A stretch of 64,000 bases of DNA from Eledone cirrhosa. Its lineage: Eukaryota. The first letter of the stretch is position 1. Every line of letters begins with the position of its first letter. A program made the position numbers and the translations under genes. The stretch spans positions 60,822,001 to 60,886,000 of the forward strand of contig OZ024742.1 of the NCBI GenBank assembly GCA_964016885.1, in the 5' to 3' direction. Positions 3,077-60,994 of this stretch are shown here, piece by piece. The notes below the pieces were generated by a model, which was not told the DNA's origin, searched no databases, and saw only the letters and a list, made by a program, of their open reading frames with translations.

Positions 3077-3420
3077 ATATCAACTAGAAATAGATTAACA
3101 TATATATATATATAAAATAAACATATGAAACAATCACAGGGAATAATTTGTAAAGAATGTAAGCACACATAGATTAATCATTTTAAAAGATATCTATATT
3201 TGAAGTTCTAGTTAAACTTTAATTAGTTACCTACCTAGCTATGTGTGCATACATTCTTTACAAATTATTCCCTGTGATTGTTTCATATGTTTATTTCATA
3301 TATATATGTCAATCTATTTCTAATTGATATGTAATGCTCGGATCTAATCTTTGAGCTTATTCTACAGTGGATATGGCGCATGTCTCTCAGACATGACAAC
3401 CCTTAATTTTAATTTTGGAT
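3077..3420. mobile_element. Fold-back insert family A, copy 1 (probable PLE pLTR remnant)
   Basis: Inverted arms ~3077-3172 / 3239-3330 plus one-sided tail 3331-3420; (TA)n both sides; homologous to 23855-24091. Confidence 0.7.
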
Positions 3421-3629
3421 AAATATATATTTATATATATATATATGTGTGTGTGTGTGTGGGTGTGTGTTTGCGTGCGTGCGCGCGCGCGCGTGTGTGT
3501 GCGTCTAAAATAGATGGCATATTAATGGGAGTTTAGTTTTATTTTACTTGTTTTAAAACTTTATATTTTTCCGTTGGGAAAAGTGTATTAAATGAATTTA
3601 TTTGTGGCTATATGTGGTAATATAATATA

Positions 3630-3685
<56 letters not shown>

Positions 3686-3692
<7 letters not shown>

Positions 3693-3916
3693 ATGCGTTG
3701 GGAGGGTCATGTTGCCAATAAGAAACACACGCACCAGTTGATTTCACCTCAATTTATTATAAATTAAATTTATAAATTTAATTTATAATAAATTGAAGTG
3801 ATGGCAACTGGTGCGTGTGTTTCTTATTGGCAACATGACCCTCCCAAAGCATAACAATATGGGTTTCAACACACGTTTTCAGATAAAGAATCTTGCTAAA
3901 CAAATTCAGAAACGAT
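3686..3916. mobile_element. Fold-back insert family B, copy 1 (PLE pLTR end)
   Basis: Near-perfect palindrome 3686-3859 centred at 3772/3773, tail 3860-3916; terminus atgaccctcccaa..ataacaat shared with the coding PLE ending at 22246. Confidence 0.75.
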
Positions 3917-3976
3917 ATATATATAGAATAAGGAAAAACGAAGTAGTTTCAGATGTTCAAGTCCTTTAATAATAAT

Positions 3977-4050
3977 GCTGTGATATATATTTCAATGACG
4001 ACACTGGCCACACTGTTCTGTGTGCGAGTGTCGTGTCATCATCAGACAGC
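3977..4050 (-). ncRNA. Type I hammerhead ribozyme (family C), long stem II
   Basis: Minus strand: gctgt CTGATGA [45 nt, acgacact/agtgtcgt hairpin] GAAA tatata TC acagc; stem I perfect, palindromic stem III. Confidence 0.75.
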
Positions 4051-4665
4051 TTGTTACATAATAAGGTTATGAATCGACATGGGAACGGATGAAGTTCGTG
4101 CTTTTGGGTTTTTCATCCGTTCCCTTGTGAGTACCAAATCACCCCCACCGGTCTGCGCAAGCGCATGTCCGAAGGAAGTTGACCATTAGCCACCGCAGAT
4201 TTCAACGAAATTTGCTGTCAGTTCACCCTCTCAGCCAAAACTCTTACTCTTAACTTCCAATGTAAAACCATGGTACCTAGAATTAAGTTTATTTTCCCTT
4301 ATGAGTTGATGGTCAGTCTTACTGTCAACGCTTAGTGAAAGGTAGTATTATGACCTATAAAAACTAACACACTCCCATCCCCTCTGGCTTTCGGCTGATT
4401 TCCACAGTCGTGATGGGTAGCAGTAAACTTTGGTAGGGCATAGGTGGGCCATTGTTTTGGCTGAGAGGGGGAACTGACAGCGAATTTCGTTGAAATCTGT
4501 GGTGGCTAATGGTCAACTTCCTTCGGACATGCGCTTGGGCAGACCGGTAGGGGTGAATTGGTACTCACAAGGGAACGGATGAAAAACCCAAAAGCACGAA
4601 CTTCATCCGTTCCCATGTCAATTCAATTTGGATTGCCTCGGAAACATAACCTTATGATGTAACAA

Positions 4666-4739
4666 GCTGTCTGATGATGACACGACACTCGCACACAGAA
4701 CAGTGTGGCCAGTGTCGTCATTGAAATATATATGACACC
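4666..4739 (+). ncRNA. Mutated mirror copy of the family C hammerhead
   Basis: gctgt CTGATGA ... GAAA tatata TG acacc; cleavage-site base is G and stem I has a mismatch. Confidence 0.55.
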
Positions 4740-4962
4740 ATTATTATTAAAGGACTTGAACATCTGAAACTACTTCGCTTTTCCTTATTCGATATTTACT
4801 CCGTCACTCCTATGTGGAAAAAGTACGTTGAGTGCTTGAATTGAATTGCATCAAGGTTTACCCTAATATATATATATATATATTTCATGATACACAGAGC
4901 GGGTCGAACGCGTGGTGTTATTTCTTCGACGGCCGACCCCTGTATGTATATATGTATATATA

Positions 4963-5129
4963 TGACAAAGAGGGTGTGGTAGTACTCAATACTTAGGGTA
5001 GTAGAGTGGGTAATAAGAAAAGAGTCAAGACCCCGACGGATGAGCTCGCGCTGTTTCGACAGCTAGATCCGAACTCGCATCTACCTGTCGAAACGGCCGG
5101 AGCTCAGCCGTCGGGGTCCTGACTCTTTT

Positions 5130-5131
<2 letters not shown>
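4963..5131. mobile_element. Fold-back insert family D, copy 1 (Naiad pLTR end)
   Basis: Arms ~5017-5066 / 5078-5131 (gaccccgacgg...ccgtcggggtc), left tail, ends tttcc|(TA)n like the Naiad at 46604. Confidence 0.75.
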
Positions 5132-5184
<53 letters not shown>

Positions 5185-6917: not shown

Positions 6918-8030
6918 TATATAAAACTGTAGTTGTCCGTGTGTGTGTCCTCATTTTTGCTAAGTCTATACAAATCCACATTTCTATTCCGATTGATTTC
7001 AATATTAACTGCAGCTTTTATTTTTCAGTTTTCTGTTGTTAAAGGGGTGTTAGGCGCTGGTTATCTATCTCCGTCGCCCCCTTATAATATCTGTCTGTAT
7101 TACGACATCATGACAAACATTGATGACGTATTATGTTCGCTATTTTGCGTTCATTGCCAGAGAACGTCTTCGCGAAGCAAAGTATCGTCTTCCCGTTTTC
7201 CTTCGGTTGCAACGTTTTTCGTAATCTTTACTTCTGCGTTCACAGATTGATTTTTTTAGTTTCAGAAGATCCCGTTAAGGGTGAAAGCAGCGATTCTTTG
7301 CTTAAACTTTAATCTGTTATTTTAATATATAATATAAGCGAGCCAAGCCAGCTCAGTTGCCACTTCTTGCCAATAAACAATAACCCTTTGTGCGCCATTC
7401 ATCTAACTGTAGACCAACAAATACCAACTAAACGGAGCGTTGATAAGAACGATGGCAAATGTATCTTCGAGGTAAGCAGTTTCCTCCCGAGCTGTTAGGT
7501 CACGCGGAATTCTCTACTACACCTTTTCGTAATAATACCGAACAACGTACTGCTGGTCACTCCTTCCTCCAAAACCGTACAAAGCGGACATGTTCATCGG
7601 GCAGATCGATCGTGTGCAAATCTACACCAGGTCTACGCGATAATTTCGCAAGTGACTGCACCGAGAGGGATAGAGAGAAAGAGTAACTTAGTGAAAAGAG
7701 TGCGAATGAACTTTTGAGGTAAGTAGCCTACGCCTTACTGCTATTGCACTGTAACCCTCTGCCAACTTAACCTGTGACTTTCTCTTTCACATTTACTCCA
7801 AAAGGTCAAAACAGAGGAGTATGAAAAGAAGGGGCTCAACAATATTTCCATGAACAATGCACGTAGACAGCTAAACTGTACTTTCAACTTCTTAATTTTC
7901 TCCAAATGAAACAAGTTTCCTGTCGGTATACTTTCGTGAGTTTTTAACAGGCACTCAGAAATAAACGTTTCTCATTGGAGGTGCCATTACCAATGTTCTT
8001 ACTCGTGCAACGCCGGGATACACTGCTAGT
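6915..8030 (+). mobile_element. Non-autonomous Helitron-like element
   Basis: 5' tatatataaaactgtagttgtccgtgtgtgtg; 3' cgtgcaacgccggg...ctgCTAG|t; internal block cgtcg-cccttataatatctgtctgtat shared with the 18255-20080 element. Confidence 0.6.
7125..7328 (+). mobile_element. Family F repeat (pLTR-like)
   Basis: Highly similar to 15446-15648, 18048-18250 and rc of 15140-15290 and 19578-19695; all end at ctgttattttaat. Confidence 0.75.
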
Positions 8031-10574
8031 ATATATATATAATGTACAAGTTGTCCCATAATGATGTGACACATCTTATATGCACTCCGATGAGCCATTT
8101 TTCTGTAGAAGGATATTTGTTTAAATATCACAAATGGGGGATATCCATCTTTTTATAATTCATGTATTGGACAATTCATGAAATTCTAAACGGAAATCTG
8201 TACCTTTTTTCATTAATATCTTCTATATTTTGAAATAGAATATTAATTAATTAAAAGCATTGAAGATGTAACTACTTTAGAAATGCTTGTGCCACATATT
8301 GATTAGACAACAATTATATTTGATACTCCAATTTCTCCAAGCAATTAAGATGTAATGAACATTTTAATGTTTAATATGCATTGGTTAAAATAATGGATTC
8401 TTAGGGACTCTGAACGCTACTTTCTGACACACTTACTCGGCTATTGAGATGGCTATGACATTACAGATTAAAATATTTATAGCGAGATTTGTATGCGTTC
8501 ATTGTGCATAAACATATCGTGTATATATATACATATATATATATGTGTATGTGTGTGGGTGTGTGGGTATATGAGTGTGTGTGTATGTGTGTGTGTGTAT
8601 GTGTGTTTGTGTGTGTGTGTGTGTATGTGTGCGTATGTGTGTGTGTGTATATGCGTGTGTGTGTGAGTAGTAATTGGATTGCGTTTGCAGGCAGTATGCC
8701 AAGATGAGCACTCTATGCTATTGGAGAACAGAGTATCAATAATAATTTGGGACCAAAGAATTAGTGTTGCATCATATACATATTTAATCACATATTACAT
8801 GTGTTTCACTGCCGATCAACTCGAGGAACTCTGGAATCGAAACCTACTCAGGTATGTGCTTTCACATGTACAATCACATCCAAATGTTATTGAATTATTA
8901 GACACCTGATTTTTTTTATTTTGGGTTCCAACAAATATAATTATATATATATATAATTATATTCAAAACAACGAACAGCGGAGGACACGTTTCGCACCTT
9001 TCCGACAGACAACCTTTCCCCCACCCCGGAAAAAAACCCTAGTTGTTATTTTTTTTTTTTATCCTTTACACGTCTTATACACGCCACGCATCTCAACTTA
9101 CACCCACTTACATCTCTCTCTCCACCACTGGATCTTGTTACTCGGAGATTTACCCATTTGCATTGTCGAGGCTTCCAAACGACTTAAAGAAATTTGCCTT
9201 ATTATTCTAGAATGCTTCAAGCAAACTTCAATACTCTTTTATATATATATATAATTTAGGCGCAAGGGTGGCGATTTTGATGAGAGTGGAAATTCCATTA
9301 TATCGATGACTACAGAATTTGTACATTATTTTATCAACCCCTATAAAACGAAAGGCAAGTTTGAGCTTCGTGAAGATTGAATGTAAAGGGCTGTAACTAA
9401 ATTCCATTAGGTGTTTTGTCTGAATGATGATATAAATATGATAACGATAATGAGGATAATAATGATAATGATAGCGATATTGATGATAATTATAAAAGTA
9501 ATGATGATAATTATAAAAATATCGCTGATAATATTAATATTATTAGCAACAACAACATAAATGAAATACTCCGCGATGTGGAAAACAATGCTTGAACATA
9601 AATTGAAAACTGAAATCTGATTAGAACGAAATGTTTTATGATTAAAGTCATACTGTATGGTAGATTGCGGTTTGTTACCATAAAACATGATGGTGTCTTC
9701 TGTTTTAGCGGTTGATTTTTAAAATTTCTTCTTCGTTTTTTTTTTACTTTTATAATTTAATAATACCGTTGTCATCTCTATTCGAAAATTTGTTGTTGCT
9801 TCATCATTTAAATTCAGCAGATAAATTTAACACCTTGTAATGATGAAAGATTTGTGAAGTCTTCAATACTTAATCATATTTAAAAAAATATTATTTCATG
9901 CAATCTTTTTCTCATTCTTTTTATTTAATGTCTTCTGCCTTTTCCTTTTACCTCTTCATAACACGATCTACGAGCAAATATCTATAAATGGTTCATAACT
10001 TATAGCTTCTTCGTGTTTAATTCAAGGTCTCATATGCAGGGTCTTTTTTTAGATATATCGACGAAAGTCCAAGGAAAATGCGAAACCATATAAAGAACAA
10101 ATGATAAATACAAAACAAACAATACGCTTATATATAAATTAAGATGATGATTGATAGCGTACACAATTGCTATCATTTTTTATTGCTGCTGTTAATTTAT
10201 GTAGTGTAACCATAGGCTATCTTTGGCCCAGTTTCATGAGACGTTGAGCGTACTAACTATAAAAGACTCCTCAATGATTAAAAGGACACCGATACTTTCC
10301 AATCAGTACCAACAGAAGTAGCTGTCTGTACTAACATTTTAATCTAAGAAAATTGTAACAGCTTACAGTAAAGGGCCTTGATCAAGAATGTAACTCGCCT
10401 CTTTAACAACTAGGCCATGCACCTTCAGCATGGTTGCGTTTTTAATAGATTCATTTGTTTATTCATGTTATTTTATAGCGGAAACGAGTGCAATTGAGAC
10501 GAGAGAATACGGTGTAATGCGGTACAATATAATAAATCAAGTAGAAAACAAAACGAATCACACCGAGGTCTCCG

Positions 10575-14284: not shown

Positions 14285-15137
14285 AAGTAAACATTGTTTC
14301 TTTGGATCGATCTGACGGTTGACTTCTTTTATTTATCAGTAAGTTTCAATATCTATAAAATTTGTATGTCCTTATAAGATTATATGAAGAAATAATTTGT
14401 CATTATGGACACATACACATTCATTTTGTAAATATTTACTGATACCTGCTGTGATATATTGATATTCTCGGCCTTGATATTCAGGCAGGTGCCGTTGACA
14501 AACCATAACAACATAAACACATCGGGATAATTACCACTATTTTCTCATATTTTCTCATAACTTATTTCATTACAGCTGTTATCCTCGTTAATTTTAATTC
14601 CTAATCCTTATTTTATTTTTACTCCGATAAATGTTAGGTTGCATCCACTATCATATTCCCCACATTAAACACATCACCATGCATCCCCACCCTCATCCAC
14701 AATAACACATACCACATACCCTTGAGGCATACACAAACCACTAGAACGGTACGATTCACCACAATGGTTTGCATCACCTCATTTTGTATAATTAATTTCA
14801 CCACCGTTATTCAACATCACTTGCATTCCCTAGTACACGTTCACCCTTCTCACTGTGGTGCCAGTGTAGGAGTGCCGGATGGCCATCATGAAAACTCCAT
14901 ATCACCTACCACGAGCAGACGCATTTAGCATGGCACGCCCATCCGGCTCCGTGTACCTTCTACGCGGGCCTATGTGGGGTGATATATACATATATATGTA
15001 TGCATGTTTACATTATATATAATATATAGATATATATATATATATATAGTAATAATAATAAAATTGAAGACTAAAATCCAAAGAGGGCTCGATAAGGAAA
15101 ATATATATCAAATATATAAGAACCGTAGAGCAAATAT

Positions 15138-15650
15138 TTATTAAAATAACAGATTAAAGTTTAAGCAAAGAATCGCTGCTTTCACCCTTAACAGGATCTT
15201 CTGAAACTAACAAAGTCAATCTGTAAACGCAGAACTGGATATTTCAAAAAACGTTGCAACCGGAGGAAGACAGGAAGACGATACTTTGCTCCACGCTCCA
15301 CATATGACTTATTATCTTCGTTTTTTCGTTCATTGCCAGAGAACGTCTCTATGCACCACCTAAGAGAACATTAGTCTACGACCTCTTTTATACCATAAAC
15401 GTGGTTCTGTCTGTGCGCGTAATTGTTTTTCACCGCTCCTATTAATGACGTATTATTTGTTTTTTCCCGTTCTTTGCCAGCGAACGTTTCCACGAACCAA
15501 AGTATCGTCTTCCTGTCTTCCTCCAGTTGCAACGTTTTTTGAAATATCCACTTCTGCGTTTACAGGTTGACTTTGTTAGTTTCAGAAGATCCCGTTAAGG
15601 GTGAAAGCAGCGATTCTTTGCTTAAACTTTAATCTGTTATTTTAATAAAT
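15138..15650. mobile_element. Fold-back insert family F
   Basis: Inverted arms ~15138-15290 / 15495-15650, both ending ctgttattttaataaat; a Helitron fragment lies immediately left (15085-15135). Confidence 0.75.
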
Positions 15651-18990: not shown

Positions 18991-18993
<3 letters not shown>

Positions 18994-19541
18994 TTCGTTT
19001 CTGAATTTGTTTATCAAGATTCTTTATCTGAAAACGTGTTGTGTTGAAACCGATATCGTTATACTCTGGGAGCGTCATGTTGCCAATAAGAAACACACGC
19101 ACCAGTTGTTTCACTTCAATTTATTATAACCAGTAACATGTATATTAACAAATAAATAAGCAAATAAATAAACAAATATAAACACACACAGACACCCGGA
19201 TGTAACACATGCGCAAACTAAGCACACAACACACACAAAAACAAGATGGCGTAGGACAGATCAAACAACCAACCAGTAACATGTAAATAAACAAATAAAT
19301 AAACAAATATAAACACACACAGACATCCGGATGTAACAAAGAAAAGAATCTCCAGTCACTGAAGGGGTCACAGAATGTGTGATGAAAGAACTTTGACAAT
19401 ATATGAACAATTATCTGGTTGTGGAACGAACCAACCGGAAATTTATAAATTCATAAATTTATAAATTTAATTTATAATAAATTGAAGTGAAATCTACTGG
19501 TACGTGTGTTTCCTATTGGCAACATGACCCTCGCAAAGTAT

Positions 19542-19548
<7 letters not shown>
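18991..19548. mobile_element. Fold-back insert family B, copy 2
   Basis: Tail plus short inverted arm (18991-19129), then plus-strand pLTR ending ataacaat|(TA)n. Confidence 0.75.
19355..19397 (+). ncRNA. Hammerhead (family B), A9G variant
   Basis: gtca CTGAAGG g-gtcaca-gaatg-tgtgat GAAA gaac TT tgac. Confidence 0.55.
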
Positions 19549-19584
<36 letters not shown>

Positions 19585-20120: not shown

Positions 20121-20345
20121 AAACAGAGAATGTATATATATTAGGTATAGGATTATATATAAAACAGAGAATGTATATATATTAGGTATAGGATTATATA
20201 TATTAGGTATATGATTAGCCTAGATGCAGTAATGCTTAATTACTACACTGGATAGAGTTGACGTACGGTGAGAGGTTACTCAACGAGTTATGGAAGAATT
20301 GTTGAAGAAACTTACTTCCTGATCCTTCTGTATTCCGGAGTGTAG

Positions 20346-21346
20346 ATAAAGAATGAATAATAACAGGTAGATATCTCCTTTAAATTTCGCTGGTACCGTC
20401 ATCAATTCTCAATTAAACATCCTGATCACCGTTTTGTGACCACGCTCGCCAACAAGACCTGGCAACTCCGTGAACGCAACCAACAGTTCACCTTGAAATG
20501 GGATATACTTTCCAGCGCAAGTGCATATCGGAGTGGATTGAAGTACTGTAGGTTATGTAACCTTGAACTCTGTTACATCTTAAAATCCAAAAATAAATTA
20601 ATAAATGATAGAATCGAACGATCATTATACTGCAACCACAAACTGAAAGCTAAATTCTCTCACTATAAAATAACTTAACATTCGAACCCGTAACTATAAC
20701 ATTGCTTTCTAGCAAACCAATTTCTCTTCCCCCACACTACAAGTCCATACCCTGCTTATCACTATAAATGGGAACTTGTGCAATTCGTAGATTTCTACTA
20801 TGAACCCAATGTTCACCCACCCCTTAGCTTTCGTCTGTCCCCTCTCTATCTCTCCCTCTCTATCCATTCCACTCTCTCTCTCTCGCCCTAGGTCTACCTC
20901 CCTCCCTCTCCACATCTATGAACCTGCCCTCTGGGGCAATAAATAATTCCAACCTTGACTATCAACGCATCGCTTAAGGTGGTCGCTTTAAGAGTAACCA
21001 GTATAATAAAACCCTACCACAACATTTTGATTAAGATATCTACAAACCACTCTATCCCATTTCTCCAACCCATGCATATCTCTCTCTCTCTTCCTCTCCC
21101 TTCTTTTCCTTCTTCCTTTTCTACTCTATCTTCCCCAATAACCTCACTTAAGGGTATTTACATTGTACATTTTAACCACTCTGCTCTGATGATACAGTGG
21201 TCACAGCATTTGATAATTGAGTTTTGCAAATAGTTATAAATTTGCACATAGCATAACTAGGCTGTATACCTACCGTGGAAACATTTGTAAGCACACAGAA
21301 CGAATTACCTTTTTATGATGTCTACCTGTTATTATTCATTCTTTAT
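20346..21346 (+). mobile_element. 5'-truncated Naiad-type PLE (GIY-YIG C-terminus + pLTR) with short inverted arm (family G)
   Basis: ORF 20436-20678 TTLANKTWQL...KWDIL...CRLCNLE...LIN...CNHK; 20346-20375 is the rc of 21317-21346. Confidence 0.8.
21182..21293 (+). ncRNA. Type I hammerhead with 85-nt stem II
   Basis: tgct CTGATGA tacagtgg...ctaccgtg GAAA catttg TA agca; inner pairs acagc/gctgt and tgcaaat/atttgca. Confidence 0.7.
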
Positions 21347-21834: not shown

Positions 21835-22245
21835 CAAAGAGACAAGAAACACAGGTACAAAAAGTATTAGTTTTACGCTTCATATTGGAAAGAGGAATGA
21901 AGCACTTCACGAGGACAAATAGAGACAGAATGACAATGGAGAAACAGAGAGAAGGTCCAGTAAAGACATAAAGAACGAAAATGAAGACGGAAAACAAGGA
22001 AGCTGTTCGGTAGTCTTGATAACGAGTAGGAACGCAAAGTGGAGTGTGTGTGTGTATTAGTATCGTTATATGTGTGAGTGTAAGTGAAAGTTTAAATGTG
22101 TGTGATTTTAAAGGTAAAATAGTGAGTGCATGTATACGGTGGCGGACTGGCCAGATTGCCAAGAGGCCCCTTGGTAAGCGGGCCACAGGGAGCCCACGGT
22201 AGCGTTGCAGGATTTATGGATATATATATATATATATATATTTAT

Positions 22246-23805
22246 ATTGTTATACTTGGGAGGGTCATATTTGTGTAATATTGCCAGAATTAATAACAGA
22301 ACACACTCACTGTTTGGTTGGTTTTCGCTTCTCGCTTCTGTGTCTTTTATATCGGTAATCTAATTTATTCGGTCCTCAATGTTGCCAATGACTGACCAAC
22401 GGTCAAAAATAATACAGATACAATATAGACATAAACACATATATATAGTTTATCCTAAATCTTTCGTTGCACATCTGCAACATCGTCAGTGGTGCTATAT
22501 TTTCCTCCCGCTGCATTGTATGTGTACGCCATTTTATTCAGTCTGTCTATATATTTATTTATTTATTTGCTTGTTGTTTATTTTATTTTGTCTTCTTTGC
22601 GCATGCGTTTGCGTGTGTGTATAGTGTTTTGTTTGCTGTGTGATTGGTGACTAGTGTGTGTTTATGTGCTTGCTGTTATTGTGCTTGCGTATGTATTTAT
22701 TTATTTATTTATTTATTTATTTTATTTTATTTACTTATTTATACTTCTCTTAGGTCAGTATTGTTTGTTTGGGTGTTGTTGTTATTCCATTCATTCTTTC
22801 TGTTTAGCCTTGGTCTTCTAATTTCTATTTCACTGGCCTCTCTGATTTGCCTATCTGCTGGGTCATTTCTATGTTTAGATATTATTCTAATTTCTATGTT
22901 GTCTATGTTACCGTCATGTTGTCTAGCATGTTCGTATAGTACTGACCCGTTTTTTCGTCCTTTTAGTTCCCCCCAGTGTTGGTCTATCCTTTCACCTATG
23001 CTACGAGCTGTCTCACCTATGTATGTTGTTGTCATGTTTCTGCAAGTACCCTCTGTACTTATTATGCTATAGACTACGTTTCTAGTTTTACAGTTTATCC
23101 GGGGGTTCACCTTACATATGATACATTTCCTATTGGTACAGTGGGTTTTCTTAAAAGGGTAGGTTTTGCTGATCAGGGATTTTATGGTGGTTCCTGGCTT
23201 TTCTACCACCTTTATTTTTAAGTGGGTCTTTCTCAGGGCCTTTCTACACTGGTTAGCTAATTTCCCTCCAGGGGTAGCGTCCATAAACATGACACTCTGG
23301 TATCTCTGGTTGTCGTACCATGAGGTGGCTTTCCCTATCTTATGTCTAGCCCTATCTAAGCTATTCCATGATTTGCTCCTGTATAATGGGCAAATTCCTT
23401 TCATGTCCAGTTCTATGAGGGTCTTATACTTCTCCATGGCTCCTTCGTATACTCTGATTTTGTCTCTTTGGTTGTAGTCAGAGAACTGCATGCGGTTGAT
23501 GAAGTGTTGGATGTGTCTTTCCATTTCTGTTGGGTCTCACATGCGGGACACATTCTTCATCACTCGTACCAAATCTGCGATCAGAATATTAAACTTAGCA
23601 CTACTGGACACTGGTGAGCTTTTGAGTATCAGGTATTTGGAGGCCATGGGTTTAGCATAGTGTGAGTGGAGAATTTGGGCTCTCTCGTCTATAGTGTTAA
23701 TCCAGAGTTCTGTGTCTAATACAGGTAGTCTATTGTTAGGGTGTTTGGAAGGGAAGTCAATAGTTACAGTTATACTCTGGTGTATGGAATTAGCTATCGA
23801 CACAC
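22246..23805 (-). mobile_element. 5'-truncated Penelope-like element (RT thumb + GIY-YIG endonuclease)
   Basis: ORFs 23537-23803 (ITVTIDFPSKHPNNRLPVLD) and 22739-23524 (CxxC...NVVY...YIGETARSIGERIDQH...REA...P.LN); (TA)n flanks. Confidence 0.9.
22453..22493 (-). ncRNA. Hammerhead core in the PLE pLTR
   Basis: CTGACGA t-gttgca-gatg-tgcaac GAAA gattt; stems I and III decayed. Confidence 0.5.
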
Positions 23806-23854
23806 GATTTCATATAAAAAACCTCGCAAAACTATATATATATATATATATATA

Positions 23855-24091
23855 TATAATAACTAGAAATTGATTAACATATAAATAAACATGAATAATC
23901 ACAGGAGATATCTCCTGTGATTATTCATGTTTATTTATATGTTAATCAATTTCTAGTTATTATAAAATTCTCGGACCTACTCGTTAGAATCTTAGAGCTT
24001 ATTTTGCGGGTGATATGGCGCATGTCTTTCTGGCATGACACCCATAATTTTGATTTAGATTAAATTCATTTGATTTATCTTAATTTTGGAT
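23855..24091. mobile_element. Fold-back insert family A, copy 2
   Basis: 110-bp perfect palindrome 23855-23964 plus tail homologous to 3331-3420. Confidence 0.8.
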
Positions 24092-28705: not shown

Positions 28706-28707
<2 letters not shown>

Positions 28708-29040
28708 GTATGGTTGCATGAAAAATGCGACCGAGGGTGGTATGCCGGTTGAGCGCTCGATGCTCGGGCAGAGCAGGCTATACTACGCTTAGGATAAGGA
28801 ACAAGGATTCAGTATTGCATCATAACATATTTAATAAAATATTACATATATTTCACTGTCTCCGATTCTTCGGAATCGGATACGAATGCATATACTAAGC
28901 ATATCTGACAACCTTTCAATTACAGAGTCAGGTTCGATCTATAATAGGTCTTGACTCGAGCTCATCTATAGTGAAACATATGTATTATGTTATTAAATAT
29001 GTTATGATGCAACACAGAATCCTTGTTCCTTATCCTTAGA

Positions 29041-29041
<1 letters not shown>
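28706..29041. mobile_element. Fold-back insert family I
   Basis: Arms ~28792-28858 / 28970-29037 (aggataaggaacaaggattc...), left tail, (TA)n both sides. Confidence 0.75.
28900..28989 (+). ncRNA. Degenerate hammerhead with 61-nt stem II
   Basis: catat CTGACAA ...gagtcagg/cttgactc... GAAA catatg TA ttatg; G8 lost (CpG-type change). Confidence 0.5.
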
Positions 29042-43209: not shown

Positions 43210-43398
43210 AACGAAGGAATTGTTGTAAGGAACCAGATGGACCATAACGCACCAGAGTACTCAATACTTAGGTTAGTGGAGTGGGTAATATGAAAAAGTA
43301 TGACCCCGACGGCAGAGATCAAGCCGTTTCGACGGCTATTTCTGGACTGAAATAGCCGTCGAAACGGCTTGAGCTCTGCCGTCGGGGTCATACTTTTT

Positions 43399-43400
<2 letters not shown>
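43210..43400. mobile_element. Fold-back insert family D, copy 2
   Basis: Right arm gaaatagccgtcgaaacggcttgagctc..ccgtcggggtcatactttttcc nearly identical to Naiad end 46553-46604. Confidence 0.85.
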
Positions 43401-44116: not shown

Positions 44117-44324
44117 GATAGGGTGTGGTAAATAAACAGGGGACCATAATCCACCAGAGTACTCGATACTTGGTCTAGTAGTGTGGGTCATATAAAAAGA
44201 TTCAGAAACCCGGCGGCTGAGCTCTGGGTGTTTCGACAGCTATATCCGAACTGGCGCTTTAATTCGGTTCTAGCTGCCGAAACAACCGGAGGTCAGCCGC
44301 CGGGGTCCTGATAATTTTCATATG
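44117..44324. mobile_element. Fold-back insert family D, copy 3 (diverged)
   Basis: Same tail (ccagagtactc.atactt) and arms cccggcggctga...tcagccgccggg. Confidence 0.75.
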
Positions 44325-44600: not shown

Positions 44601-44661
<61 letters not shown>

Positions 44662-46602
44662 ATACTATTTAAACTCACCTAAATGTTTCCTGCATTCGGC
44701 GGTGGATTTGTACCGGGAAGATGGGCTCCTCACCTTCAAAGGGTACAACCCCAATAGTACAGACCGGGTCCGTAAACAACTTATCAACTTCTTCCGGGAT
44801 TGGGGATTTAAAATCACCCTACAAATGTCCCTAACCCGAGTCAATTTCCTGGACGTTACCCTAAACCTCAAAAACGATCTGTACTACCCATACAGGAAGA
44901 CAAACGACAATCTGCACTACGTCCACCGCTGCTCTAACCATCCTAGAAACATCACCAATAACCTGGTTAAAAACATCTCCCTCCGCATATCTCGTTTGTC
45001 CGCTAATAAGCAGATATTCGACGAACACGCGCCTCAAAACAACCATGCCCTCAAGCGGAGTGGCTTCCGGGTGGAAATATCCTTTTATCCAGCTTCCCAT
45101 GGCGGAACCAGCAGGCCACACCCCCGATCACGTAACGTAACATGGTTCAATCCTCCCCATAATGCTGAGGTGGCAACACTTATCGGGAAAATCTTATTTA
45201 GACTCGTCGAAAAAAACTTCCCACTACAACACCGCTACCACAACATAATCAACAAAAACACCATCAAACTCTCCTACAGCACCACACATAACAGTCTCCT
45301 CAAACAACAAAAAACTCCACCTCTATGGAATAAATAACCTAGACATTAGTGGAGAGCCGACCAAGAGGTTTAACTGCCCTGATAGATCTACGTGACCCCT
45401 CAACAACAAATGCCGAGAACGTAACGTGATCTACCAGTGCAACGTGAGGACGGGCACCTCCAACAAAGCTTATATAGGATTAACAGCGTGTCTTCAAAAC
45501 CCGGCTCTACTAACACCTACATACTTTCCGAAACCCGGTCCGGCAACATGCCACTACAGTTTCGGGCCACATCTGGGACCTCCAAGATAATAATATAACC
45601 TACAATCTCACTTGGAGCTTACTGTCCAGAGCTAACTTTTACACGGAAGGATCCGTCCGTCTAACTTATGCGCAGAGGAAACATTACAAATGCTGTTTTC
45701 GAAGGACCAACTCCTAAACAAGAAAGACGAACTGGTAACCGCATGCAAACACAGATTGCGTAGGACTTACCTCGCCCTCAAACGCCATAACGACCAGGGT
45801 GGGTAGACAAGGGCTGATACCCCATCCCCCCCCCCACACACACACACTTGCCGAATAAGTTAGGGGAAACCCCAGCTTACATAGGTAATGTATCTCTTTA
45901 CTTTTCCTCTTTGTCTTCTTCTTCCCCTGTCTCATCCTATCACTTCCTTCCACCCCCTATTTTCTTCCTCGTCTGCTTTCCCCTTTCGCCTACCCCGATG
46001 CAGCCCATCGGGCCTCTGTAGCATTAGTTCCCCCATCCCTGTAATTTTAAGATAGAATTGGCCGAATACGTTTTACTAACTACTTGTAGCATATGTGTTA
46101 AACCCCTTTAATTTTGTATCAGTTTTGTTACTACTCAATTTCTATTCTTAACTTATTAACCTGTAATTGTAAGATAGCATTGTGATTTTTTTTATTCATT
46201 TCTCACTATCTAATTTTATATATTTTTTTATTTCTTTCTATTATCTTTTATTGTCTCCTACTCTCATTCGATTTACCTATTCTATAACCTCCCTCCTCCA
46301 CTTCATACACTATCCTTAGAATCTGCTGTATACATATCACTTTCAACGCTTGACTGCTCCACTCACTCCCCTATTCTTCTACAGGCAAGTTCAGCCACCT
46401 CTACCTCCCACCAAATGCCATGATAGACTTATTTGTGTCTACAACAAATTTTAACCAATGCTCTTGGCAACTACAATCTTCCCATATAAGGAAGTACTCC
46501 CTTGACAAGTTCGGCTATTTATTCACCAGGCTAAAAATTCTAATTTAGTCCAGAAATAGCCGTCGAAACGGCTTGAGCTCTTCCGTCGGGGTCATACTTT
46601 TT

Positions 46603-46604
<2 letters not shown>
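44662..46604 (+). mobile_element. 5'-truncated Naiad-type PLE
   Basis: LYREDGL, VNFLDVTLNL, SNHP, TWFNPP, NKNTIKLSYS, NC...*PL..KC..NVIY, YIG, CKHR; pLTR with decayed hammerhead ~46497-46578. Confidence 0.88.
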
Positions 46605-46651: not shown

Positions 46652-47082
46652 TTAGTATGTGTTGGTTGTTTACCGACGCCTAAGTATGCAGGTTGGAGCA
46701 CTCGACGAAGTACGCAGGTTGGTTTGTTTAATCCGGAGTAATTTAAAATAAGTAAGTCAAGCATGTTAAATTTGGCTTCGTTTATTATAAATTCTCTGCT
46801 ATATATATTTCAGTGGCAGCTATTATTGGCTGCGACCTCTTGTTAGTCCTACGAGGAACTGGAATCATGATTCCAGTTCCTCGTAGGACAAACAACAGAC
46901 CCAGGAGCTGGACATATCAATAAATTGACAAAGTGGAACATATTTCAACACCATGTTTAGCAGTTCTTTCTACATTAATTCGTACTGCCCGAAGAGGTCA
47001 CAGCCAATAATGGCTGTCGCTGAAATATATATAGCAGAGAATTTATAATAAACGAAGCCAAATTTAACATGATTGACTTACT

Positions 47083-47085
<3 letters not shown>
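46652..47085. mobile_element. Fold-back insert family H
   Basis: Arms ~46750-46841 / 46992-47083, left tail, nested 44-bp palindrome, (TA)n flanks. Confidence 0.8.
46985..47037 (+). ncRNA. Type I hammerhead, CCGAAGA core
   Basis: ctgc CCGAAGA ggtc-acagcca-ataa-tggctgt-cgct GAAA tatata TA gcag. Confidence 0.65.
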
Positions 47086-49118: not shown

Positions 49119-52100
49119 AAGATAAACTTATATAGGAATACAAGTAAAATCATAAACTCGTCATCTACGTAAACTTCTTGTTGAGTCAAACAACGCCGTA
49201 CGCTAAAACTATCCATAATAAGAAGTATTCACAACCTCTAACTGGATTACCTATAACGATATTTTGTTATCCCTTATACCAAGCTCCCATTAGGTTGAGC
49301 ATTTAATTTAACGCACGGCACTAACATGGAAAAACACTATATAGGAATGTCCTTAAAAAACATACCTATACCTACAAATAAGGAATATATTCTCGGTAAG
49401 ATACAAAGAACTAATGATTTTATCCGTAGAATCAGATGGAAAGCATATCATTACGATAAGGGACATAAGAATAATGAAAGAAATAATGGGTCTACCAGTG
49501 AAAAATATGGGTTTAGTTCCTGAATAAAATCCACCGAGCAACCCACAACTTGATGCCTTTGGACTTGACCTCATGAACATGATAAAAGAAACTAAATTAA
49601 AAAAATGAACACATCATAACAAACTGCAAAATAACATCAATGCACTATTAAAATAATTACGTAACACCAACGCTATTATAGTAAAGGCAGACAAAACATC
49701 AAATGTATACACCATGATCCTTAATACATACAACAATTTTATACGCCGGGAATTTCATAAAAAATACAAGAATACTACAGTCTACACTCAATAGCATTAA
49801 CAAGGAAGGTCTTAACATAGAAACACACTTAAAATATCTGATAGAACCGAATCTCTAACCCCTTGTAAACCCACTTTTAATCTGAAGGATCATAAATGTA
49901 ATTTCGAAACTAACCCTACTATTAGATTAATATGTCCATCAAAATCAGATATAGGCAGAATTAGCAAGTTTATACTAGATAGAATAATACCACAAATTAA
50001 AGAAAAACTAATAATCAAGCTCTGGGGTGACACTAATGAAGCAATAGGTTGGTTTAATAAATTAGACAATAGAGAATCTTTCGACTTTATACAATTTGAC
50101 ATGAATGACTACTACTCTTCTATTTCCCCAGTAACCCTAAATAATTGCACAAAAAATTCTGACCTATCACTAGAGGAAATTAAAATAATATTAGCTGCTA
50201 GAAGAACAATCAGTAGATTCGACAATAGTTACTGGGAAAGAAAAAATAGACAGAATAACTTCGATATAACCATCGAATGATTAAAGCCCAAGTTTACAGA
50301 AATTGTCGGAATTTATATAGCACATATCTTACATAGGGAATTTGATAACCTACAAGGAGGAATTTATAGAAACGATACAATACTTTTAGTTAAAAATCTA
50401 AATACTCAAAACTTAGAAAGATTAAGGAAAATGACTAGAAAATTCTTTAATAATTTAGGCCTTAACATCACTTTTGAACTCAACTCTAAAAAAGCTAACT
50501 TCTTAGATGTATCGCTCAACCTTAACACAGGACTAATAGAACCCTTCCATAAAAATAATGAAAATTTACCTTACATTGATTATAACTCTAATTACCCCTG
50601 ATGCATAATTAACTCCATAGCACATAGTATATCCCTCAGAATCTCGCGCCTATCTTCTAACCTAGAAATTTTTAACGAACCCGCGAACTACTACAACATA
50701 GCTTTACTTATGGCAGGCCATAAGGAAAGACTCAAATACATACCAGATACAAAAACTAACAACACACTTAATATTAATAGCACTATCCACACCTATAGAA
50801 GCAAACAATCTAGGACTAAACTTAGAAATTGGCAACAAGCACGTAAATTAATTGAACAGAATACTAATATAAAGACCACTAATAACTATAGAAGATGCAG
50901 AGATATAAACTACTTATGGTTCAATCCAGTGTTTAACTCCTCTATAAAAACAAAACTACCTTACACTTTCTTCAAACTGGTTGACAAACACTTCCCTAAT
51001 ATTCATAAATATCATAAAATCTTTAATAGAAAAACTATCAAACTATCATACTCCACTGCCAACAACATAGAATCACACATAGATAATATTAACTATAAAA
51101 TAATTTATAATACATGTAGACCGTACCATAACACCGAATAAGTACCATAACACCAAGTACAAAACATAAGCATATAACATCATCACAACCAAACACATGT
51201 CTCAGCACATCACCACAATACATCAACAAACCCAATTCTCAGCCCGTACATAACAACCTACAAAACCATATCGAAGAACCGGCGCATAGAAAAGCATCTA
51301 AATGTAACTGACATCTACTTGACAAATGCCCTTTACAAAATAGATGCCTAGAGACAAATATAGTATACCTATGTACTATAAATTCAGGTAGCTTAGCATG
51401 ACATTTTATTGGCACAAAGATGGAGAGTTTAAGAAAAGGTGGTACGTCCATAGACACTCTATGATTAACATGAACCTCTTAAATACAACGACTCTCGCCA
51501 ATAAAATCTGGCAACTCAAGGATGCAAACATGGAATATAAATCAGCTGGGCGAAGCTATCAAAAGCAGCGGCCTATCAAATTGGTATGTCACACTGCGGT
51601 CTCTGTAATATGGAACTTTTCCAAATTTTAAATTACAACAAAATGCTTCTTAACAGTAAAATTCAAAAGAACTATTTTCTGCCGAAATAAAACGGCGACC
51701 AAATTCCAGAACTTTAGACCAGCTTAATTTCATCTTATCTATTCCATAACCCAAATTGTACCACTTGGATCTATTATAATATCACATCATCATAATTATT
51801 ATTATTATAATTGTCATCAATGAAACATCAAAACCTCTTATATTTACATTCTTATTTTATATATCTTTATCTTTCACTCTCTATCTCTATATTTCTCTAC
51901 CTAAATTTATTTCATCTCTGGCATTTTATTTTATCATATAATATAACTTACAACTAATTAATTAATTTATTAATTGAAATAACCAATACACATATAAATA
52001 TATTTAACATTATCATATTTAAACCTTCGTATCTCTATATATTTTAGCCACTCTCAAAAACCACTTTCAATAATCTTAATATGTTTAAATTTTCTTCACA

Positions 52101-52882
52101 CATTTTTACTTTTTTACTTATTTATTTTCATATTTTCGTTTTTCATTTTTCACATTTTGTACCATTTTGTATCATATTAGAAGTAATTTATTTATTTTTA
52201 TTTTTATTTACATTAACGTTTATTCAGTTATTGTTGACATCATTATTTTCTCTCTATTGCTCTTTCTCTCCTACGTTATTTCTCCTTATGCAAGTCTCTC
52301 CTCTTTCTATAATCATTTATCCATATATTTTCTTCTCTCTATATTTTTGTCTGTATTCATTTCTCATTTTTCTTCTTCGTTCTCTTTTTCTTTTTCTTTT
52401 TCTTTTTCTTTTTCTTTTTCTTTTTCTTTCTTTCTTTCCTTTATCTATCTCCTTTCTTCCTTTTTTTCTCTCTCTATCTTTATTATTAATATTATTATTG
52501 ATGATGTAATTTGAATTTGTAAATTTGCCGGTTATATATATGTTGTGTAACAGGTTCTGATGATCAGATTGAGATAACATCGTATTTGAAATTGAGTGGC
52601 ACTGCTTCTAGTGTTCACAAATTTTTAGACAACTTAATCAGAGAAACAATTGTTAGACAGTAAATAAATCCCCATTTTGTACTGTTGACCATGTTATTCT
52701 ATACGTTTTCAATAATATTACTACAAGATAAATTTACATAGGAATACAAGTGAAATCATAAACTCGTCATCTAGGTAAACCTCTTGTTGAGTCAAACAAA
52801 GCCTTAGGCTAAAACTATCCATAATAAGAAGTATTCACAACCTCTATCTGGATTACCTATAACGATATTTTGTTATCTCTTT
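49119..52882 (+). mobile_element. Full-length decayed Naiad-type PLE with direct terminal repeats
   Basis: SLKNIPIP..F.RRIRWKA, KADKTSN, RLICPSKSDIGRISK, IQFD..DYY, NFLDV, WFNP, IKLSYS, CN*..CPL..CL..IVY; repeats 49119-49276 / 52725-52882. Confidence 0.9.
52553..52658 (+). ncRNA. Type I hammerhead with 79-nt stem II
   Basis: CTGATGA tcagattgag...cttaatcaga GAAA caattg TT agac; palindromic stem III, weak stem I. Confidence 0.65.
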
Positions 52883-53016
52883 TATATATAGATAGATATA
52901 TATATGTATAAATATTTCGTATCTCCACAGAAATACAGTTTTAGGAAGCCGTAGCTATTCAAACAACTGGGGGCTAACGCCCTCTGGTAATGTCCAGTAG
53001 AAGCATGGGGGACAAA

Positions 53017-53056
53017 CGTCTATACATTTCAGACTTAACTGGCCTTCGTCAGGACG
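53017..53056 (-). ncRNA. Minimal type I hammerhead (left arm)
   Basis: cgtc CTGACGA aggc-cagttaa-gtct GAAA tgta TA gacg. Confidence 0.75.
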
Positions 53057-53215
53057 GCCATTCCCACCGCTTACGACTGCTGGACTAGAAGACAGGCGGC
53101 AATATATACTTTTCTCGTCTGTGTAAATGAGGTGTTTAATCTCATTTGCACAGACGAGAAAAGTATATATTCTCGCCTGTCTTCTAGTCCAGCAGTCGCA
53201 CGCGGTGGGAGGGAA

Positions 53216-53255
53216 CGTCCTGACGAAGGCCAGTTAAGCCTGAAATGCATAGACG
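53216..53255 (+). ncRNA. Minimal type I hammerhead (right arm), fully canonical
   Basis: cgtc CTGACGA aggc-cagttaa-gcct GAAA tgca TA gacg. Confidence 0.85.
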
Positions 53256-53405
53256 GTTGTCCTCCTTGCTTCTGCTGGACATCACCAGAGGGCGTTAGCA
53301 CCCCGGTTTTTGCATAGCGACGGCTTCCTAAAACTCTATTTCTTTGGAGATACGAAATAGTTATACATATTGTATAAAGCTATGCTTGAAGCGAAATCCT
53401 ATTTC

Positions 53406-53466
<61 letters not shown>

Positions 53467-57299: not shown

Positions 57300-58680
57300 G
57301 AAAGCAAGTGCTCTGGGGCCACAGAAGCATGGGAGAGGAAAACGGAAAGAGGATGAGCTCTGGGCCTAGGGCGCGGCGGTGTTGAGGCTACACCCCACGG
57401 AGAAGGCCTCAAAAGCATTTCCGCGGACAATGGCCAGCGATATCAGCTGCACAGACACCCCACCCGACCTCACGAGGCTGCTTCCTCAGTTGGGCTGCTG
57501 ACATTGTGATCTTGCGGAGGAGCTCGACAGTGTAGGCTCCAAGCGCACCTGAGGTCTCGACCGGTACGAAGAGTAAGCGGTCGGACAAATCCCAGTATTT
57601 GTTTGTATTCCTTTCCTCTCCATTGCAGGCCACAGTACCGAGGTTTGTGGCCGAAGCGACTAAATTGGAGGCCGAGAACGTGTCACAACATTTGGCGTCC
57701 CAGATGAGGTATCTACCTCCTTCGAATGGGAAGAGTGTACATCCGTCGGGGCGCTTGCCCTCTCCACGGTTGAGGACTGCTGGCCTCAGTTGTGATGGGA
57801 TGCCAGCAGCGTCTAGGCTCCTTCACAATATGTCATTGAAAGCGGCATGTCGGAGAAACCGACCTGCGCTCTGGCGGCAAGAGAGTGGGTGTAGGCCAGG
57901 CTTCTCAACGACCGCCCCACCATGGCATTTATGTAGCTCATACACGCAGAGACCAAGGCTTTGGACGACACCAATGCGTTTGCACACGTCATCAAGAAGA
58001 GTACTACCAGTTGATGAGAAGGGCACCAAATTCAGCTATGCACAGCTGTTTGGATGTGAAGCGGAGCGGGAGTAGGTGAGGTGGAGTTGGTCCAAGATCT
58101 GCATTTGATGTCCTCAAATTACGCTTAAAACTTGTGTACTAAGGGACAGAGAGGCCTTCACCTATCCAGTCGATCAGAGCCTGGTTGAGCACTGGGGCTC
58201 CGCCAGGTTTGGCCGTCTTGCTGGGGAATTCGCTGAAGTGATCGTCACTGAAAGAGATTGAGGAAAGTTAGACAGGTAGAGGCAGATCCGAAGCGGATCT
58301 GATCTCAGGCCATCGAACATCGCTGAGAGCTTCAACTGTTCCCAACCGGCGCTGTCGAAATTGATATTGCAGATGAGTTCTGGACACCGTTGGATGGTGG
58401 CGTCGAGTTCGCCGAGAACTGCATGGAGTAACAATGTGCACTACATAGGCTGAACAGAAATTTGGCGACAGTGAAGCAGTTCCACAAATATGCCGGGTGA
58501 TTGTCAATGAGACGCAGCCACTCTGCCATTCGGGTCAAGCCTGCATATGGTCTGCAGGCACTCTCTCATGGCTTTCGAGAGATTTGTAGAGTTGAGAATG
58601 CAGGCGATGTGTTTGGGCGTTAGCCGAGCCCCGGACAAGACGTGGGTACAGAATCGTGGAATTCAGCCTCTCCACAGCTA
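57300..58680 (-). pseudogene. CRE-clade non-LTR retrotransposon 3' part (Zn finger + restriction-like endonuclease)
   Basis: GLHPLSCRQSAGRFLRHAAFND, GKRPDGCTLFPF..G..LIWD, FVPVETSGALG. Confidence 0.82.
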
Positions 58681-59939
58681 ACGTTTATCACCTCTGACTT
58701 GGATTAGCATTAAGACATCAAATATTACAAATCAATTTTCTAAAATTCCTGGATCATACCTTTGTGACTCCATATACGACTACTTCAATTTTAGCTTCTC
58801 TACATAATTTGAGATATCTTGCATTTGGTCTAATATATCGCTTTAAGTGACACCCAGCCTGCATCTTTCTATATATCTTGGATATTTTTCGTTACTCTTC
58901 TATCAACATATATTATATTGCTTATAATATATTATTTAATTGTGTTACTTGCTTTCATGATTTACTTAAATAGGCAGATACGTTATTTACTATAAATATC
59001 GAGTTGTTTCTGTTGTTTTATTTATTTATATGTTTGTTTGTGTGTGCGCGTGTGCATGTGTGGGGGGCGGGGGATTTACATATATGTGTTTGTCTTGTTT
59101 ATTCTTGAACATAAATAAATATGGTTCATTTTTATGGTTATGCTTCAAAATGCACTTTCGTCCAGATACATTTATTACAGGTGTCAGAATGTGGAGTGGT
59201 GTGTGCTGGAAGTTTGCACCATTAATGAACGTTATTACCTATGACAATTGTTCCGATATCGATCAGCACAGTGTTCGATTATAATGTTCGGGGCCCGACT
59301 CTGCACTGAGATCTTATCAGGAATGCATTCATGGGCACAGAACATTCTAATATATGTAACCAGTCAAGTGAACCTCTTATTTACAGTTATTTTGGACTGT
59401 GCATGGCGGTAAATGAATAAGTGGATGGATCTAAAATGGATAAGTTATAACATGTAGATATATAAATACAATCAAATTTTGCAAAGTATAAAAAACAAAC
59501 GCAATGGACAGAATGGCTAAGTAGAGAATAAACGTGTCTCCAAGGAAACGCCTTCTTTTTTCTGTCTGCCAGTACGGCGAGGGCGGCCAGCGCGTTGTCC
59601 CCATTTGCTCATTGTAGTGCGAGATGGGGAAAGCGAGACAGACGGAAGGAATGACTCTACCAGCATTGCTGAAGTATTTTATAGAGTTAAAAGTTAAGTG
59701 ATTTTACTAATGCAGATGTTTTTATCTCGTATACAAGCTGATACATAGTGAAATTTAATTTTAAAAAAAGGAAAATATGCGACGTGTCTTTGTAAATGCT
59801 TCTTAAAAAAACACATTTTTTAAAATCAAATTACATTGTCTGTAAATAGAAAATTGTATATTTTTCGTACTGCATTCAACACTAAATAAGCTAAAAAAGA
59901 TAACTGAATAACATAATTCAATTCCAAGAAACAAAGTCA

Positions 59940-60096
59940 TGTCTACTATAGGCACAAGGCCAGTAATTTGGAGGAGGGGCAACTCGATTAAACTGACCCC
60001 AGTACGTGTCTGGTACTTTATTTTATCGACCCCGTAACACTATGCTGCAATGCATGGCGTCCGACCCTCTACCGATACTACCAATCCATCGCCCTC
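59940..60096 (-). mobile_element. Internally deleted tRNA-derived SINE
   Basis: ggcacaaggcc, ctggtactttattttatcgacccc, cctctaccgatact.ccaatcc. Confidence 0.8.
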
Positions 60097-60705
60097 AATC
60101 CAAGAAAGAAAGTAGAATAAGATCTTTCGATGAATGTAGCAACAAATAAAACAGCAACAACAACAATAACAGCAACACCAACGGCGATGACAAAAACGAT
60201 ATTAATATGGCGTGGACGTGGTCATGCCTGTTGGAAGACTGCTATACAGGTGGGGTTCCTCAGCGATGCTGCATAGCTGTAAAGCGTAATTGATCGGACA
60301 GGCGGTCTGGAGTATCGATCATCGATGTTTATATCTGTCTACGGTGGGGTGGTTGTGAAACTAGAGTGATCCTGTGGCAGTGGCATTGGGTAGTGATGTC
60401 AACATCAACAAGTCCACCAGCAACAACAATTGCCGCTAACCTATGAGCTGCAACTGAAAAGATATCGATGAGACCCAACATATTGATGAGGCAAGGCGAA
60501 GAAGTAAAATAGTAGGTGGAAAAGGTAGTGAATATACAAACATGATTAAAAGTATTTTCTGTTTGTTGGAGATTAATTCCAAAAAAGACAGCTACAACAA
60601 GCACAGAAGAAATTAAGAAAGACAGAGAAACACGGAGGTGCAAAATAAATCATATCAATTTCAAAAAAGATATATATGTGTATATATATGTATATAGATA
60701 CATAC

Positions 60706-60761
<56 letters not shown>

Positions 60762-60824
60762 GTGTGTGTATGTAAGTATGTATATACATATATATACGCA
60801 TATATATATATATATATATATATA

Positions 60825-60994
60825 TCCAGGGGGTGTAACTGGGAGTTACTGCAGGTTCACCCGGGAAAGCACTCGATGTTTAGGTTCACTTCTGTGATGA
60901 GGTGTAGAGATATACAGAGTGTAATATATTGAAACGATAACAAGGACGATTGATTAAGGAGTAATCAATCGTCCTTGTTATCCTTTCAATATAT
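60825..60994. mobile_element. Fold-back insert family J
   Basis: Arms 60924-60956 / 60962-60994, left tail ~100 bp, (TA)n flanks. Confidence 0.65.

Follow-up and report, generated by a model that had tools for sequence, protein, structure and literature searches.

We analysed a 64,000-nucleotide window of the Eledone cirrhosa genome (GenBank assembly GCA_964016885.1, contig OZ024742.1, positions 60,822,001 to 60,886,000 of the forward strand) that is dense in fold-backs, which we relate here to Penelope-like elements (PLEs). The fold-back families of the window are called A to J, S is the short end of a unit, L is its tail end, and negative numbers count nucleotides before S. A first-pass annotation had listed 14 fold-backs, and all are inverted repeats where it placed them (Table 1), with arms of about 30 to 345 bp that are 72 to 100% identical. 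The plan it proposed, (TA)n, arm, inverted arm, tail, and (TA)n again, holds for most of them, but clean (TA)n is missing on one side of the units at 4963, 20211, and 44324. Family F had been described as symmetric, and it has a tail. Family G had been taken for a fold-back that matches a separate coding PLE; it is one insert, with the tail on the short inverted arm and the coding fragment itself as the long arm. A match to coding PLEs of the window had also been claimed for B and D. This is correct for D, but B matches the element at 22242-23832 only patchily and has its own coding copies (loci L053 and L086 in our numbering). The decayed PLE at 49120-52884 carries its tail twice, in its 5' part (49116-49278) and at its 3' end (52722-52884), and the two copies are 93% alike. 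We also noticed an older fold-back at about 10738-11695, about 75% identical and with a hammerhead-like core near 11505, which is the 15th in the window.

Table 1. Fold-back units and coding PLEs in the window (window positions)
Feature	Position	Strand	Details
Family A hairpin	3077..3420	+	Arms 3077-3330 (80% alike), tail 3331-3420
Family A stem, GCTC..TT-GAGC	3336-3356		Within tail of 3077 hairpin
Family B hairpin	3686..3914	+	Arms 3685-3860 (94%), ~56-nt tail without stem
Family C hairpin	3926..4865	+	Arms 3918-4241/4454-4798, tail with stem 4798-4833
Family C hammerhead motif	4045	-	Intact, inside 3926..4865 hairpin
Family D hairpin, diverged subfamily	4963..5131	-	Arms 5013-5134, shortened left tail, stem 4984-5007
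Family F hairpin, asymmetric	15049..15648	-	Arms 15134-15288/15498-15652 (97%)
Family F tail	15049-15133		85 nt, stem 15087-15131
Family B hairpin	18991..19545	-	Tail 18991-19052, arms 19053-19129/19472-19549
Family G insert, single, 1.1 kb	20211..21343	+	Left tail, stem 20278-20341, left boundary approximate
Family G insert arms			33-bp inverted arm; long arm ends at S (21343)
Family G long arm	20211..21343		Endonuclease C terminus and hammerhead-like core, both by eye
Coding PLE, 5'-truncated, B-related	22242..23832	-	RT thumb and C-terminal GIY-YIG-like domain; ends at short end ataacaat/AT
Family A hairpin	23855..24090	+	Perfect 55-bp arms, tail 23965-24090, first stem strand mutated
Family E hairpin	28706..29041	-	Tail 28706-28783 (stem 28755-28774), arms 28779-29047 (72%)
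Family D hairpin	43210..43400	-	Tail 43210-43290, stem 43259-43282
Family D hairpin, diverged	44117..44324	-	Stem carries one change
Coding Hydra-clade PLE of family D, 5'-truncated	44660..46604	+	Ends at short end tttcc/TA
Candidate promoter in D pseudo-LTR	46516..46553	+	TATTTATT at -31, TT[A]GTCC; putative function
D wall	46547		Putative +1, 57 nt before S, inside candidate promoter
Family H hairpin, complex centre	46652..47085	-	Stem 46700-46739
Hydra-type PLE, decayed, near full length	49120..52884	+	Motifs read by eye
Family I hairpin	52902..53409	+	230-bp arms, ~40-nt tail without stem
Family I minimal hammerhead	53052	-	In one arm
Family I minimal hammerhead	53220	+	In other arm
Family J hairpin	60826..60988	-	Tail 60826-60923 (stem 60871-60920), arms 60924-60994

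The hairpins match the 3' ends of PLEs, and their tails are the sequence that follows the pseudo-long terminal repeat (pseudo-LTR) in full-length copies, where it is the 5' untranslated region (UTR). A search with the coding fragment of family D returned 30 loci. In L116 and L118 the tail continues into the 5' UTR, with an open reading frame (ORF) about 90 nt further on. Therefore, the tail is internal element sequence. That ORF has the reverse transcriptase (RT) motifs QFDIESYY and GLYRDDG and then AYIG, and by eye it is like published Hydra proteins. A search for B tails that continue into the element body gave one match.

According to Craig et al. (2021, PMC8557442), the Hydra clade of PLEs is characterised by RWK-type and DKT motifs, a CxCX5C linker, CxxC and CxH, no CCHH motif, and (TA)n targets. 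We found the same features here: RLRWR, SDKTG, CNCPDRSTC, CNLC, and CKH in the D protein, CNCRNWADC, CDLC, and CKH in the F parent, and CNLC and CLH in the M parent, together with a C-terminal GIY-YIG domain, no CCHH, and insertion into (TA)n. Measured from the start of the tail to S, family D spans about 3.1 kb; Hydra-clade elements are generally under 3 kb. Families A, C, E, G, H, and J were assigned to the Hydra type solely by the tail stem described below (G also by C-terminal motifs). Translations of the B parents (L053 and L086) have a CX2-5CxxC linker, CCHH, and a C-terminal endonuclease, which makes them Neptune/Nematis type, a grouping that leaves the two clades unseparated. Partial-tandem pseudo-LTRs, an inverted 5'-truncated copy, and a one-sided tail, all hallmarks of endonuclease-positive PLEs, are present. 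The hairpins are very short PLE inserts with inverted pseudo-LTRs and a tail, mostly of the (TA)n-targeting Hydra clade. The parents encode RT and not transposase, in support of the PLE origin without transposase that had been proposed.

Profile searches added little. Pfam, run on eight window ORFs, found GIY-YIG in the ORF at 62555-63013 only, plus one weak zf-RVT match, and did not detect the RT fragments among these ORFs. No hammerhead was among 94 Rfam matches, nearly all of which were to generic microRNA hairpin models and none of which reached the gathering score. Canonical hammerhead motifs are present in C and I and, by eye, also in G, K, M, and P. Family D keeps stem II and GAAA, but its core is degenerate. 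A recent preprint describes non-LTR retrozymes as tandem units that each have a type I hammerhead (bioRxiv 2026.07.22.740005); the 14 window units are inverted, not tandem. Family P, which lies outside the window (L041, L063, L065, L070, L077, L078, and L080), does fit that description by eye. Its tandem units are abundant and about 430 bp long, and they contain a TA-like segment as well as a hammerhead-like core; we rejected it as a symmetric hairpin. It also forms inverted arrays and looks like a nonautonomous PLE or a retrozyme.

An inverted-repeat scan, which the first-pass annotation had suggested, was run on 80 evenly spaced 10-kb loci (0.8 Mb, the even sample) of the 3.0-Gb genome. Hairpins are widespread, with 205 inverted-repeat groups in the even sample versus 2 in 40 block-shuffled loci. 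One end was on (TA)n and the other 9 to 160 nt away from it in 72 of 258 inverted repeats (12.4 expected for random intervals), and both ends had TA in 19 (4.0 expected). A separate script counted distinct arm-plus-tail units and found 89 in the even sample and 11 in the window. This gives about 110 per Mb, or some 300,000 units genome-wide, a rough extrapolation that includes misses and false calls. The 14 fold-backs are therefore typical of the genome and no local oddity.

Fold-back in library preparation or assembly can produce false palindromes. At 23855, a locus known from the assembly alone, the two arms match at 100% identity, and a few S/S units have palindromic flanks, such as L032 (231-640), where the flanks are also inverted copies and either later conversion or an artefact may be responsible. 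Most arms differ by 3 to 28%, though, and short reads that a different study obtained from three other samples span the D fold with the same joints as the assembly and contain about 670 to 720 TA loose ends at the D short end. Contigs from a run labelled as another species have the same D ends. We therefore give the artefact explanation almost no weight. A search for empty sites gave matches for 8 of 285 units, none of them decisive, and target site duplications are unreadable within (TA)n. Units of different families can lie end to end in the same TA tract (L141, L160, L202, L207, L212, and others), so older inserts act as targets.

Each family has two sharp ends, one on each side, as the first-pass annotation had stated. 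Exact-pattern searches found the S end 3,905 times, the L end followed by TA 5,264 times, and the tail continuing into the UTR 36 times. Within the even sample, D, B, and F have fixed S and L ends; when all loci were used, so do A, C, J, K, M, and N. A third D end lies at a TA-like internal site in the 3' UTR (window about 46195-46225), where L120 seems to start and then jump. The two ends are paired by rule. Among 70 D pairs selected independently of the junction, 55 were S/L, 2 were S/S, none was L/L, and 13 had a truncated end; one L/L pair was seen among the exact L-end matches listed. In long inserts, the coding arm may be either arm. The arms of one hairpin share nonmajority bases 34 times, compared with 5.3 after permutation (69 hairpins). 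Therefore, they have a common source or were homogenised later. Several observations weigh against a strict rule or a common source: F, K, M, and N include units of the S/S or L/L type, both ends of L116 are at the third site, and gene conversion could also explain the shared variants.

Hairpins that move as units would resemble miniature inverted-repeat transposable elements (MITEs). Like MITEs and foldback DNA transposons, these inserts are short and noncoding, with terminal inverted repeats, TA flanks, and a high copy number, and some junctions recur. Unlike them, one end has a tail, the ends are asymmetric, the arms are PLE pseudo-LTRs, and junctions and centres vary from copy to copy. Neither the equal terminal inverted repeats nor the invariant interior of a MITE was found. 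Movement as units is therefore highly improbable. A G>T change on only one arm of 15 hairpins looked like a fixed variant of such a unit, but it is an artefact of selecting loci by their likeness to the window copy.

We also considered a single cDNA that folds back and primes itself on an antisense template, as put forward for rotifer Penelope elements in the portion of PMC3846280 that concerns Adineta vaga. Those elements are like the present ones in their head-to-head inverted pseudo-LTRs, optional one-sided tail, TATA/initiator-like pseudo-LTR motif, and solo pseudo-LTRs (PMC3846280). The variants common to both arms and the perfect palindromes at some centres (23855 and family M) fit self-priming. 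However, in 9 of 56 S/L pairs of D, the L arm stops short of S, so that the arms have no shared sequence, which is incompatible with fold-back. In addition, either arm may extend further upstream (31 versus 17 of 51 pairs, from a stricter junction parser that over-shortens arms carrying mutations), and extra bases can be present on both arms of one junction. Self-priming is already contradicted for the nonoverlapping pairs, unless those are later deletions, and we regard it as very unlikely overall. The junctions favour two primings on sense RNA.

The fold point had been thought to vary freely. Instead, the fold points of D and M accumulate at a wall, and those of F have a hot spot. In the 56 S/L pairs of D, from which the pairing step left out pairs with long centres, the arm terminates at -50 to -61 in 40 cases on the S side and 28 on the L side, whereas 3 and 2, respectively, go beyond. 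(BLAST arm ends at -64 are over-extensions and were taken as -57.) By eye, 3 of 29 D loci anchored on the S end alone pass the wall. At the 43210 hairpin, the tail arm extends to -57 and the short arm begins at -51. Arms of M, F, B, and K were mapped onto one long copy; 14 of 25 mapped M arms end at -161 to -165, and 11 of 43 mapped F arms end at -60 to -69, at TT[A]GTTT. The D wall is the A of TT[A]GTCC, 31 nt after TATTTATT (43 read-through copies). This wall is not a DNA boundary, since the length of the 5' pseudo-LTR in full-length copies ranges from tens of nucleotides to over 1,400 nt. Hammerhead cleavage was rejected as the source of the D wall because the predicted cut is at -17, where few arms end.

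Copying an RNA cap would leave an extra G, as in other retroelements. The base beside the F wall that is untemplated by the partner arm is G in 17 of 20 cases (30 loci, minus 8 direct joins and 2 read-through variants). Some of the 20 are not independent, because three hairpins contributed two arms each and one case is probably a duplicate. Where both arms end at the wall, C-W-G junctions between them are found repeatedly, in D as well as in F. In these two families, the wall site is initiator-like and an extra G is often present, the pattern that run-off at the capped 5' end of an RNA should give. The D and M walls and the F hot spot point to an RNA 5' end. In copies with a long body, the inverted partner passes the wall in 19 of 20 cases (by eye), which suggests that both arms use the same kind of template.

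Other observations count against this reading. About half of the F arms pass the hot spot, B has neither wall nor stem, and K has no single wall; therefore, the run-off part of the model does not cover all families. M and F lack TATA at -31. The extra-G signal is weaker in D (short inserts have G 11, C 8, A 1, and T 11; the first 100 listed matches have G 52, C 42, and A 6 by eye), is ambiguous in M because the wall is a palindrome, and was present in one of three cases of the diverged D subfamily. We infer both the RNA start site and its cap. Twin priming might also be true and the wall be an RNA-structure stall or a microhomology hot spot. Consistent with this, an extended hammerhead stem II has the D wall in its tip, the palindrome CATATG forms the M wall, and a blunt -57/-51 junction is recurrent in D. 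However, arms halt at the wall regardless of their partner, both arms of long inserts pass it, and neither the extra G at the F and D walls nor the initiator-like sequence of D and F is explained. The D wall is also inside a stem strand and beyond a stem of 9 bp, which makes it a poor match for a simple structure stall. We consider a stall or microhomology origin of the wall improbable.

Between S and L, the tails of Hydra-type families contain a conserved bulged stem, RCUC...NN-GAGY, with RCTC a few nucleotides after S and GAGY downstream. It was found in 22 of 66 long-tail clusters (one of them a mis-parsed D unit) versus 1.7 in shuffled sequence and in none of 26 short-tail clusters. Sequence clustering keeps the families with the stem apart, and their outer pair is A-T in 12 families, G-C in 8, and mismatched in 2. 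In the 2-nt bulge register, at least three of four further Watson-Crick pairs form in 19 of the 22 families, with differing letters, whereas any other register achieves this in at most 1 of 22. (The automatic pick for F was wrong, and its stem was confirmed separately.) In the window, 11 of 14 units have the stem, two of them with one change, and it is absent from the two B units and from I. The lack of the motif in 44 of the 66 long-tail clusters argues against generality, and many of those are merged or mis-parsed units. By eye, Hydra sequences of a coral and a sea cucumber in the published consensus set (PMC8557442) have the same stem and the copepod sequence has a variant form, whereas it is not evident in the octopus sequence given there. 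The sections of that source consulted here do not mention the stem, the wall, or the S/L rule.

We think that the mini-inserts are probably head-to-head PLE ends produced by two target-primed reverse transcriptions that flank the conserved RNA stem. A transcript would start, capped, at the initiator within the 5' pseudo-LTR. The element protein would bind the tail stem, and its GIY-YIG endonuclease would cut both (TA)n strands. One 3'-OH would then prime a few nucleotides 5' of the stem (S) and the other 25 to 120 nt 3' of it (L); one priming per TA target strand is consistent with the hairpin orientation. If the 5' copy of the stem were used, both cDNAs would run off at the cap, often adding a C opposite the cap G, whereas use of the 3' copy would give long inverted inserts. 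The cDNA 3' ends would be joined by blunt, 1- to 2-nt, or short-insert junctions, and each joined cDNA would template the second strand of the other. The mini-inserts would be dead-end by-products and not a self-propagating family. The first-pass annotation had already proposed two priming events at two RNA sites. This is still the best reading, but without the variable fold points.

Alternatively, two RNAs from one source locus might be held by a protein dimer, with S primed on one and L on the other, at the same sites and with the same run-off. The Poseidon protein of green anole is predicted to dimerise in the relevant part of Frangieh et al. (2024, PMC11167929), several tails contain a self-complementary GAGY-RCTC octamer, and in most cases the L arm continues beyond S and repeats the S arm, for which a single RNA would need strand displacement. 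However, independent choice of site, or of the 5' or 3' stem, predicts many S/S, L/L, and mixed short/long pairs, and these are rare. Furthermore, L arms halt early within the shared region in 12 of 56 D pairs, compared with 2 of 56 for S arms, as if they had reached the first cDNA. One RNA is therefore favoured, and a dimer with two RNAs seems unlikely. It counts against the single-RNA version that the hairpins do not distinguish one RNA from two transcribed at the same locus.

We lean only slightly towards the broader proposal that Hydra-clade PLEs obligately twin prime around a bulged RNA stem found across phyla, one strand priming 5' and the other 3' of it, with mutual priming of the second strands. 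In L1 twin priming, the second target strand primes internally and the two cDNAs are joined, giving an inversion. That process is occasional, takes place at variable sites, and makes no duplicated arms. Here, in contrast, it would be the rule, at two fixed sites and with overlapping arms. Obligate twin priming, if true, explains the inverted pseudo-LTR and the one-sided tail, and run-off at a capped 5' end, if true, explains some 300,000 MITE-like hairpins. The stem, if its role is correct, is a recognition element for a telomerase-related RT.

Inverted pseudo-LTRs, tails, and two start sites are already published. In the in vitro work on the Poseidon PLE (PMC11167929, pertinent sections), the tail is delimited by two internal RT start sites, both target strands are cut and extended, uncleaved RNA is the template, and 5' truncation of the RNA shortens the product. 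There, the two strands showed no difference in start site, and the later steps are left open; here, S pairs with L and the joined product is seen. The Poseidon start sites are at an AC-rich stem-loop in the ORF (PMC11167929), whereas here they flank a 5' UTR stem. Transcription starts within the pseudo-LTR are known for Penelope and Chlamys, according to the section of PMC8557442 that deals with them. The Hydra-clade PLEs it describes also have a 5'-truncated copy in inverted orientation, with a tail on one side (PMC8557442), but their tails are 30 to 40 nt versus about 60 to 165 nt here, and most inserts here are ORF-less mini-inserts, unlike those described. Passages of both PMC11167929 and PMC8557442 call the formation of inverted, tailed inserts an open question. 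Our full-text searches gave no report of the S/L pairing rule, the wall, or the stem; older Penelope papers or Repbase notes may cover parts. The phenomenon is real, its class is known, its structure is partly known, and the mechanistic detail is new and testable. Such hairpins would usually be catalogued as MITEs or unknown repeats. They are a large natural record of the reaction that shows, to the base and for many families, the two start sites, the junction, and where the RNA 5' end probably lies. For in vitro work, the shared stem provides point mutations to try and a minimal RNA, which in D is about 140 nt long. At about 110 per Mb, the hairpins could possibly be a large source of intramolecular double-stranded RNA, if transcribed.

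Other repeats were noted in the window. Solo or one-armed copies of F and E are at 7119-7336, 17971-18333, 19567-19696, and 8750-8825; the copy at 17971 has another F tail with the stem kept. A 5'-truncated PLE with the GIY-YIG match in Pfam is at 61403-64000 (minus strand) and has a tandemly repeated 3' region, and a decayed fragment of an RT element of another kind is at 57409-58700 (minus strand). Two 3.8-kb copies like long interspersed elements (33065-36870 and 39136-42927), with endonuclease and RT, are 94% identical and have diverged relatives at 25781-26511. A dispersed repeat of about 190 bp that is like a short interspersed element is at 13053-13242, 42944-43099, 44385-44569, 54084-54266, and 59947-60095, and pairs of it in opposite orientation look like inverted repeats.

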